Virus genome (UHGV): UHGV-0036483
Origin: a virus
DNA: 54,587 nt
Direction: 5' to 3' (one strand)
Of the stretch, positions 17,571-17,601 are shown in pieces. The position numbers were made by a program, and so were the translations under genes. The notes under the pieces are model-generated. The model was not told where the DNA came from. It made no database searches and saw nothing but the letters and a program-made list of their open reading frames with translations. Position 1 is the stretch's first letter; each line of letters begins with the position of its first letter.

Positions 17571-17601
17571 ATTTTTCGCGTAGAAGCGCGTAAACATGTA
17601 T
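17571..17601. repeat. 31-bp conserved element ATTTTTCGCGTAGAAGCGCGTAAACATGTAT (copy 1; copy 2 at 29313..29343)
   Basis: 30/31 identical to the element upstream of the M-like tail gene; contains CGCGTA-N4-CGCGTA. Confidence 0.5.

Follow-up and report, generated by a model that had tools for sequence, protein, structure and literature searches.

Two copies of a short, strongly conserved module were found on the plus strand of a 54,587-nt viral DNA (the whole stretch analysed, hereafter the window), one in the leader of the portal gene and one in that of the first tail-tip gene, and comparison with related phages indicates that it is a genuine, selectively maintained cis-element in both leaders. 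It looks like an undescribed gene-expression signal. The tentatively preferred explanation, rated somewhat short of probable, is a transcribed leader stem-loop acting post-transcriptionally. The existence, position, orientation and copy number of the element, the strong purifying selection on it and its capacity to fold are matters of observation. The window is the complete or nearly complete genome of a temperate E. coli siphophage of the mEp021-like (mEpimmI) type, with 85-92% identity to the seven mEpimmI members sequenced, and its late region is broken up by three minus-strand cassettes. In the human gut, mEpimmI phages are reported to occur as often as lambdoid coliphages (PMC11893012). 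So far only early N-like antitermination has been studied in their gene expression, and the mEpimmI genome paper does not mention the element. A group-specific element in two copies, better conserved than non-synonymous codon positions and standing before the portal gene and the first tail-tip gene, offers an experimental handle on late-region expression. The modules and the genes around them are as follows.

17563..17603, plus strand, portal-leader module, with its core at 17571-17601
29305..29345, plus strand, tail-tip-leader module, with its core at 29313-29343
17617-18987, plus strand, portal gene (Pfam Phage_portal_3), start codon 17617-17619, Shine-Dalgarno (SD) sequence AGGAG 17604-17608
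29370-29723, plus strand, lambda-M-like minor tail gene (Pfam Phage_min_tail), SD sequence GGGGG 29361-29365
28772..29200, minus strand, divergent toxin-antitoxin-like cassette, comprising a 51-aa gene (29045-29200) and an 84-aa ParE-like toxin (28772-29026)

An earlier note on this DNA had reported a repeat, ATTTTTCGCGTAGAAGCGCGTAAA(C/G)ATGTAT, with 30/31 identical positions at 17571-17601 and 29313-29343, and had found the direct repeat CGCGTA-N4-CGCGTA in both copies. Both observations were confirmed: the 31-bp core is ATTTTTCGCGTAGAAGCGCGTAAACATGTAT at the first location and the same sequence with G for C at the second, both on the plus strand, and the direct repeat is present in each with a 10-bp period. 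The genome-wide search for further copies that had been suggested was run over the window as a pattern search allowing up to 3 mismatches; it returned only the two copies, with no third, and 0 chance matches were obtained in 100 dinucleotide-preserving shuffles. A covariance model built from natural variants, used with filters off, matched the portal copy at 63.1 bits (E 4e-12) and the tail copy at 66.6 bits, and nothing else in the window scored above 15 bits. A 14-bit match at 49722 was rejected as a copy, being antisense inside an ORF and devoid of the CGCG arms. When a 1-nt indel was allowed, the likeness ran further 5' (TTTCT-A / TTTCTCA), giving a module of ~41 nt; the flanks 5' of the elements are TTTTTCT (portal) and AATTTCTC (tail). 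The common module of ~36-41 nt consists of a U-tract, a CGCGU-NNNN-RCGCG hairpin, a bulged U and AAA.

The portal copy is held in the 78-nt gap between terL, whose stop codon is at 17536-17538, and the portal gene, and the tail copy lies in a 168-nt region shared with the divergent minus-strand cassette, the toxin homologue of which is named 'ParE family toxin-like protein' by RefSeq in the homologous prophage. The module is situated 5-20 nt 5' of the SD sequences of the portal and lambda-M-like genes. Measured from the end of the element, the SD sequence is 2 nt away at the portal copy (AGGAG) and 17 nt away at the tail copy (GGGGG); the portal ATG follows after 16 nt, and the tail copy is 27 nt upstream of the minor tail gene. 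Both copies had been described as standing in the leader of the first gene of a structural sub-operon. They do lie in leaders, those of the portal gene and the first tail-tip gene, but the portal copy does not head a sub-operon: the terL-portal gap has no promoter-like site, and the CACAAT upstream is CACAAC in relatives. A coding role in any frame was rejected, with stops in two of the plus-strand frames and loop variants that are non-synonymous in open frames.

The portal ATG at 17617 is the start chosen by PGAP in the E21845 prophage. The mEp021 GenBank record begins the portal CDS at an in-frame ATG inside the element (window 17596), which lies within the hairpin and has no SD sequence; the ribosome-binding site annotated in that record falls within the CDS itself. 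The gene at 17617-18987 is a portal gene by Pfam (Phage_portal_3) and by the mEp021 proteomics listing. In most E. coli genomes the homologous prophage gene bears the RefSeq/PGAP name 'anti-CBASS protein Acb1 family protein', which is probably misleading. In the tail leader, AUGUAA (a start followed by a stop) stands at 29350-29355, between hairpin and SD sequence and with no SD sequence of its own; the pattern is kept in all tail leaders, including the variants AUGUGA (L083) and GUGUAA (L350).

Relatives were searched for with the downstream proteins as anchors, as a guard against ascertainment bias. All relatives with at least 85% amino acid identity in the M-like protein have the element upstream, and those at 60-70% identity, from other Enterobacterales, have no element and carry an intrinsic terminator or the tape-measure gene directly upstream. 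Among portal-anchored IMG/VR loci the element was present in 44/44 distinct loci, including those with a different terL allele upstream, and each of the seven sequenced phages has it in two places. It was found in 41 of 5,426 complete E. coli genomes, in a median of two places per genome, always in the chromosome and never under an annotated feature. Absence from related phages, which the earlier note had named as grounds for giving the element up, is the opposite of what was found, the element being in all related phages. A metagenome scan anchored on the flanking promoter block added no further arm variants, and neither did an IMG/VR scan for the satellite form described below.

Compared with synonymous sites and with the intergenic DNA around it, the core evolves several-fold to ~20-fold more slowly. 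Nucleotide diversity is 0.014 in the portal core, versus 0.159 elsewhere in the intergenic region and 0.248 at third codon positions, and 0.072 in the tail core, versus 0.18 and 0.33, respectively; codon positions 1+2 of the downstream genes have values of 0.03-0.06. Diversity so far below that of flanks and third codon positions argues that the element is functional. The CGCG arms and the T-tract are its tightest parts and the central six bases its loosest (centre versus arms, 0.127 versus 0.028 in one copy and 0.045 versus 0.000 in the other).

The two copies in a genome usually differ at 3/31 positions. The centre of the portal copy is AGCAA in 46/50 (CGCGT-AGCA-ACGCG), and that of the tail copy is AGAAG in 32/44 (CGCGT-AGAA-GCGCG). 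Identity at 30/31 positions is limited to the genome in the window and two IMG/VR contigs, in which a tail-type centre stands at the portal (AGAAG, 2/50); the reverse swap, with a portal-type AGCAA in the tail copy, was seen in one contig (1/44). The 30/31 identity in the window is probably the product of a short gene conversion.

As plus-strand RNA the core reads U5 / CGCGU-NNNN-RCGCG / bulged U / AAA, with A/U flanks that lengthen the stem. The predicted pairings in the window are listed here.

17577-17590, plus strand, portal hairpin, CGCGT 17577-17581 pairing with GCGCG 17586-17590, loop AGAA 17582-17585, bulged T 17591
17570-17576 with 17592-17598, plus strand, A/U lower stem of the portal hairpin
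29312-29340, plus strand, tail hairpin, 29319-29323 pairing with 29328-29332, loop AGAA 29324-29327, bulged T 29333

The folding energy of the tail copy is -10.6 to -11.8 kcal/mol (z about -2.3 to -2.4), and that of the portal copy is an unremarkable -6.2 to -6.5 kcal/mol (z about -1). RNAalifold, applied to both leader alignments (23 and 32 distinct leaders), predicted this hairpin alone. Pairing of an upstream UUUCU(C) with the SD sequence appeared in one MFE fold and was discarded, as it is missing from the consensus folds of the 23 and 32 distinct leaders. In the phage copies the CGCG arms are kept throughout, with only one-sided changes (UGCG...CGCG and CGCG...UGCG) that are G.U wobbles in plus-strand RNA and A/C mismatches on the other strand. 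The closing pair varies (U.G, U-A, U/U), and above a 5-bp stem the loop of relatives is AGAA, AGAG, GGAA, AGCA, AGCG, AGCU or AGAU; one lineage has a centre 1 nt shorter and still folds at -7.7 kcal/mol. In the tail copy of E21845 the U-tract is TTATT, which is uncompensated. No double compensatory change was found in the 12 proposed pairs, and the percentage of paired cells is not above that of column shuffles; for these two reasons the fold is not proven. The predicted hairpin is compatible with the data, and covariation does not decide between an RNA hairpin and a DNA operator.

Under the preferred reading, that of a leader stem-loop, the module would act on the late mRNA and not on the DNA. 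A small stable stem-loop with A/U-rich single strands on either side would shield the downstream ribosome-binding site from upstream RNA, and would flag or protect the 5' end of the mRNA segment that follows it. In the tail block it would be a 5'-proximal hairpin on the transcript of the TATAAT promoter described below, and at the terL-portal junction a processing-site or protective hairpin, so that the output of two low-copy assembly proteins would be set independently of their upstream neighbours. We infer action at the RNA level, through stability or translation, from the fixed orientation of the element, its position just before ribosome-binding sites in each of three gene contexts, arm changes that are all wobbles together with a tolerated change in loop length, and the fact that no promoter would fit between the portal copy and the start codon. 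The centre is the least constrained part, as expected of a loop, and RNAalifold predicts this hairpin alone. L333, an IMG/VR contig in which a 157-aa HNH/AP2-type homing endonuclease gene has been inserted ~25 nt downstream of the tail element, is also in keeping with it: the module stays at the 5' end of the leader despite the insertion before the minor tail gene. Against action on the RNA stand the missing double compensatory changes, the ordinary folding energy of the portal copy, the uncompensated TTATT of E21845 and satellite variants that weaken or abolish the hairpin. In addition, if transcription does start where TATAAT predicts, the hairpin would come after ~10 unpaired nt, a long stretch for a structure that protects a 5' end.

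Two promoters may lie upstream of the tail copy.

29266..29294, plus strand, candidate rightward tail-block promoter, GTGAAG 29266-29271, 17-nt spacer, TATAAT 29289-29294
29242..29281, minus strand, leftward promoter of the divergent cassette, ACAAAATGG-CTTCACA (-35 at 29270-29265), 17 nt, TATATA 29247-29242

The perfect TATAAT pointed out earlier is present at 29289-29294 and is invariant in 26/26 distinct relatives, with variable neighbouring bases. Its -35 sequence, GTGAAG, matches at 3/6 positions only, and the promoter was not called by a consensus scan; judged by conservation, TATAAT may be part of a real rightward tail-block promoter; with its predicted start near 29301, the hairpin would occupy about +12 to +40 in the tail-tip RNA. 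A CRP-type site, TGTGATGAATTTCTCA (29298-29313), had been proposed next to it. In the window this sequence agrees with the consensus TGTGA-N6-TCACA at 9/10 positions, but it is judged not to be a functional CRP site, because its second half is not conserved and its position is unsuited to activation. Relatives keep the TGTGA half fairly well and have TCTTA, TATCA, TCTAA or TCTCG in place of the second half. Relative to the rightward start the centre would lie at about +4.5, and relative to the leftward one at about -69.5, whereas activation needs a centre near -41.5 or -61.5. The element was also considered as an operator of the neighbouring toxin-antitoxin cassette and rejected, since loci with a different leftward gene (L100/L102) keep it and the portal copy has no such neighbour.

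Some E. coli genomes gave weak single matches, and these pointed to islands inserted in the eut operon between eutB and eutA, where K-12 has CPZ-55. Three of them, in the size range of 9-12 kb, are given as examples.

L371, 9648-18700, island in an E. coli chromosome
L373, 5508-17600, island in an E. coli chromosome
L381, 3106-14839, island in an E. coli chromosome

The islands encode an integrase, an AlpA-type HTH protein, a winged-HTH protein and many small ORFs, and have no capsid genes. Their small terminase is Sf6-like and 37-40% identical to the phage TerS over the N-terminal part, and most of them encode a 730-aa tape-measure homologue that is 40-47% identical to the tape-measure protein (TMP) of the window. 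A tape measure of its own is unusual in a satellite. Such islands are present in ~20 of 5,426 E. coli genomes, in none of which is there a mEpimmI prophage alongside. They are probably PICI-type satellites of mEpimmI-type phages and form an undescribed family; no literature on these islands as satellites of this phage group was found. Islands that combine TerS and tape-measure homologues with the module suggest a likely helper-satellite pairing with a shared and directly testable signal, and this connection is the most interesting aspect of the element.

Within the islands the module lies in the leader of the gene that follows the AlpA-like gene, or that follows a 146-aa or HNH gene placed in between. 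It is inside a co-directional operon, and a strong SD sequence comes ~30 nt further downstream. The FDAARGOS_1284 island has a full portal-type copy (46 bits). In at least 4 island genomes the sequence is TTCTATTTTTCGCGTAGCAACGCATAAACAAGTAT, in which the upper stem has C x A at its base, and the hairpin is weakened to -4.4 kcal/mol. Five genomes have CACGTAGCGTCACTTAAAC, in which the same G-to-A change occurs in both repeat units; the hairpin is lost and the direct repeat kept (L377/L378, CACGTA-N4-CACTTA; the L377 fold has 0 kcal/mol). The 3' arm is missing from L372 and L380, and L372 carries two copies of the 5' half, each broken off within the hairpin. All satellite variants retain GUAG. 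The only nucleotide stretches common to the satellites and the phage are the module and the hairpin of the late-operon terminator (ACCCGGCCCCGCGCCGGGTTTTTGC, 12731-12757), which is 100% identical over 23-26 nt to island terminators situated after the last gene (L371 18647-18669; L373 17557-17582). HNH genes stand directly upstream of the element-bearing leader in satellites L376, L378, L380 and L381, and the satellite and phage-contig HNH genes are 26% identical (E 1e-7). A C/A-rich, G-poor tract (~25-30 nt) is found before the module in the portal leader (17539-17570) and in all satellite leaders (for example L371 13960-14000 and L373 9007-9040), and the tail leader has no such tract; it could be a sequence of the Rho-loading or translational-enhancer type.

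The earlier note had left the choice between a late-regulator binding site and an RNA leader element; with the cis-element in the leaders found to be genuine, this is still the right pair of options. The main rival of the RNA stem-loop, a possible though lesser one, is a DNA operator, made up of two CGCGTA units one helical turn apart (or, in an equivalent view, of the dyad TTTCGCGT-N4-ACGCG-T-AAA) and bound by a phage-, satellite- or host-encoded regulator. Where the tail-tip transcript begins (about +12 to +40 from the TATAAT promoter) it would stop or modulate RNA polymerase, and at the portal it would be a stoperator-like roadblock between terL and portal that, for example, silences the structural genes in the lysogen. 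The 10-bp period of CGCGTA-N4-CGCGTA, the combination of conserved half-sites with a variable spacer, the good position just 3' of the invariant TATAAT and the sharp limits of the module (~36 nt, with unrelated flanks in phage and satellites, as is usual for operators) all suit this explanation. The same is true of L377/L378, where the G-to-A change in both units keeps the repeat and destroys the hairpin, but in L377 this counts as one event only, and the leader there has diverged by 24% overall. No candidate protein was found, and no regulator common to satellites and phage rose above noise. The immunity-region repeats, of the CTTGCAAG type, are unrelated to CGCGTA, and no third copy lies near any promoter, the late promoter included. 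Furthermore, the spacing tolerates a shift of 1 bp, the extra T spoils the symmetry of the dyad, and a dyad site would not need the shared orientation of the two copies.

It is rather doubtful that the module is a signal for a trans-acting factor, RNA- or DNA-binding, that co-ordinates the portal and tail-tip blocks and has been copied by the eut-integrated satellites. If it were, the satellite operon would be turned on, or its message translated, in time with the late programme of the helper, a case of helper exploitation at the level of a cis-element. The late terminator is shared as well, so sharing of the module is by itself no proof of a dedicated trans-factor.

A boxB-like RNA hairpin, bound by the N-like Gp17 or another RNA-binding protein and serving antitermination or translational control, is unlikely; satellites would then have copied the hairpin to plug into the helper's programme. 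Three Gp17-dependent nut sites are known in mEp021 (PMC11893012), and the boxA sequences read from the window, at 5925, 51859 (minus strand) and ~53081, each have their own hairpin about 8 nt later.

5925-5955, nutR2, boxA TGCTCTTTAAAAA, hairpin GCGC-UGAAAU-GCGU
51812-51859, minus strand, nutL, boxA AGCTCTTTAAAAA, hairpin UCGCU-GCGA-AGCGA
53081-53120, nutR1, boxA CATTCTTTAACAA, hairpin GCCGC-UGGAAGU-GCGGC

These hairpins likewise have G/C stems of 4-5 bp and purine-rich loops; with lambda-type nut sites in general the element shares a small G/C stem, a purine-rich loop and transcription within a leader, and an N-like arginine-rich protein is among the phage's gene products. The bulged U and the flanks, both invariant, are features typical of protein recognition, every satellite variant has GUAG, and PICI-like islands with TerS and TMP homologues carry the module. 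Identity with a lambda-type nut site was nevertheless rejected, there being no boxA (CGCTCTTA or TGCTCTTTAA-like) ~8-12 nt upstream of the hairpins. With up to 1 mismatch, TGCTCTTTAA occurs in the window only at 5925, 7291 (minus strand), 51850 (minus strand) and 52868; the boxA-like sequence at 52868, TGCACTTTAAAAA, is additional to the nut sites. The loop of the element varies, whereas nut loops are reported to be conserved (PMC11893012). Unlike nut sites, which come after early promoters, the element belongs to the late region that depends on Q and lies beyond a Q-type antiterminator; a ribosome-binding site follows it directly. A plain late terminator, moreover, is shared with the satellites at 100% identity.

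Least likely of all is that the module does nothing for expression directly and is a linker for recombination or a target for homing, that is, a crossover point for the phage Erf-type annealase or a homing-endonuclease site: both copies are conserved far beyond neutral expectation, even at positions of no use to homology-dependent exchange, the element keeps one orientation and a set distance from the ribosome-binding site in each of three gene contexts, and the phage mosaic joints lie near the element and not inside it. These joints (alternative terL alleles ~35 nt upstream of the portal copy and, in L100/L102, alternative leftward cassettes upstream of the tail copy) do favour it, as do the HNH gene 25 nt downstream in L333, the same-family HNH genes that abut the module in satellites, the break inside the hairpin in the two half copies of L372, and the rare loop swaps (portal AGAAG 2/50; tail AGCAA 1/44), which resemble short gene conversions.

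The closest known form is that of the ESAS inverted repeats, from which the element differs in its two copies, its short arms and the lack of a coupled SAS. The ESAS/SAS of Cluster K mycobacteriophages are inverted repeats upstream of gene starts with a suspected translational role (PMC3203893). Like them, the element is an inverted repeat with a variable spacer, located directly upstream of translation starts and ribosome-binding sites, in one orientation and conserved across the group; the ESAS spacer is 4-13-bp and ESAS lie upstream of unrelated genes (PMC3203893). ESAS arms are 17 bp long and coupled to a 13-bp SAS that includes the ribosome-binding site, and there are ~10-20 copies per genome versus two here, where the SD sequences differ (AGGAG versus GGGGG). 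There is no sequence similarity between the two, and the host phylum is different. Hairpins that stabilise mRNA in E. coli and its phages include the ompA 5' stem-loop, the T4 gene 32 leader and the T7 RNase III sites. The element resembles these in having a stem-loop beside A/U-rich single strands upstream of a ribosome-binding site, and the likeness would suggest a segment-specific role in stability or translation within a polycistronic late mRNA; it is much shorter than RNase III sites and is not at the extreme 5' end. The stoperators of Cluster A mycobacteriophages are similar in being short sites of one orientation between genes inside operons, a likeness that would account for a copy located midway along the late operon (PMC9283540, PMC6550527). 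They match the immunity operator and number ~20-30 per genome, whereas here the immunity repeats are unrelated and there are two copies (PMC9283540, PMC6550527).

Several other identities were tried and rejected. No terminator-like site is present at either copy on either strand (the hairpin is flanked by U5 before and UAAA after on the plus strand and by A5 after on the minus strand), and scans found no sigma-70 promoter (-35 and -10 hexamers 16-18 nt apart) within the element. An immunity-repressor operator or stoperator was dismissed since the repeats between the divergent immunity genes are CTTGCA / CTGCAAG; no CGCGTA pair occurs in an intergenic regulatory region of the window, and the palindrome CGCGTAAATACGCG at 53929, considered as an operator, is inside the Erf recombinase gene. 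Sites for IHF and CII-type direct-repeat activators do not agree in spacing or consensus. The RfaH ops element is GGCGGTAGCGTG, with a C3:G8 pair in its non-template hairpin; only GTAGC (5/12) matches here, and positions 3-4 are GC, not CG, when compared by eye. The NagC/Mlc operator is a quasi-palindrome with TT and AA at positions +/-5,6 (TT-N9-AA) (PMC4288165), and the distance from T-tract to A-tract in the element is 15 nt. Rfam gave no match at gathering thresholds for the whole window, nor at E <= 1 for either leader.

The pattern GTAGA-N0-4-GCGTAAA occurs in the window only at 12678, 17580 and 29322, with 0.05 occurrences expected, and the copy at 12678 lies in the -35/spacer of TTGTAG-17-TAAAAT. 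A link with Q binding was dropped because the late promoter was placed at TTGTAG-17-TAAAAT and the spacer motif varies freely among relatives, the 12678 stretch being GTGGGTCGAAAAC or unrelated in relatives whose elements stay unchanged. TGAACA-16-GATAAT was rejected as the late promoter, as it is inside a small variable ORF. The likely late promoter unit (12676-12750), upstream of the holin gene (12775), comprises TTGTAG-17-TAAAAT with its -10 at 12699-12704, a 5/6 -10-like TGTAAT (12724-12729) and a terminator (12732-12750); relatives show two sequence classes upstream of the late -10. The Q gene (7367-8089; Pfam PF03589, Q82 type) is 4.6 kb upstream of the late promoter, with ~15 small ORFs between.

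A conserved block upstream of the tail copy, GTGAAGCCATTTTGTA (29266-29281), recurs at 26227-26242. It was left outside the element because it is mostly the leftward promoter of the toxin-antitoxin cassette: read on the minus strand, it is the -35/upstream part of leftward cassette promoters of the form ACAAAATGGCTTCAC-N17-TATA(A/T)A (TATAWA). The same architecture is found at 26200-26242, and a similar one, TATACAAAATGGATTGACT-N17-TATATT, at the early rightward promoter (52785-52826). CCATTTTGT recurs beside the third minus-strand cassette (30808-30821).
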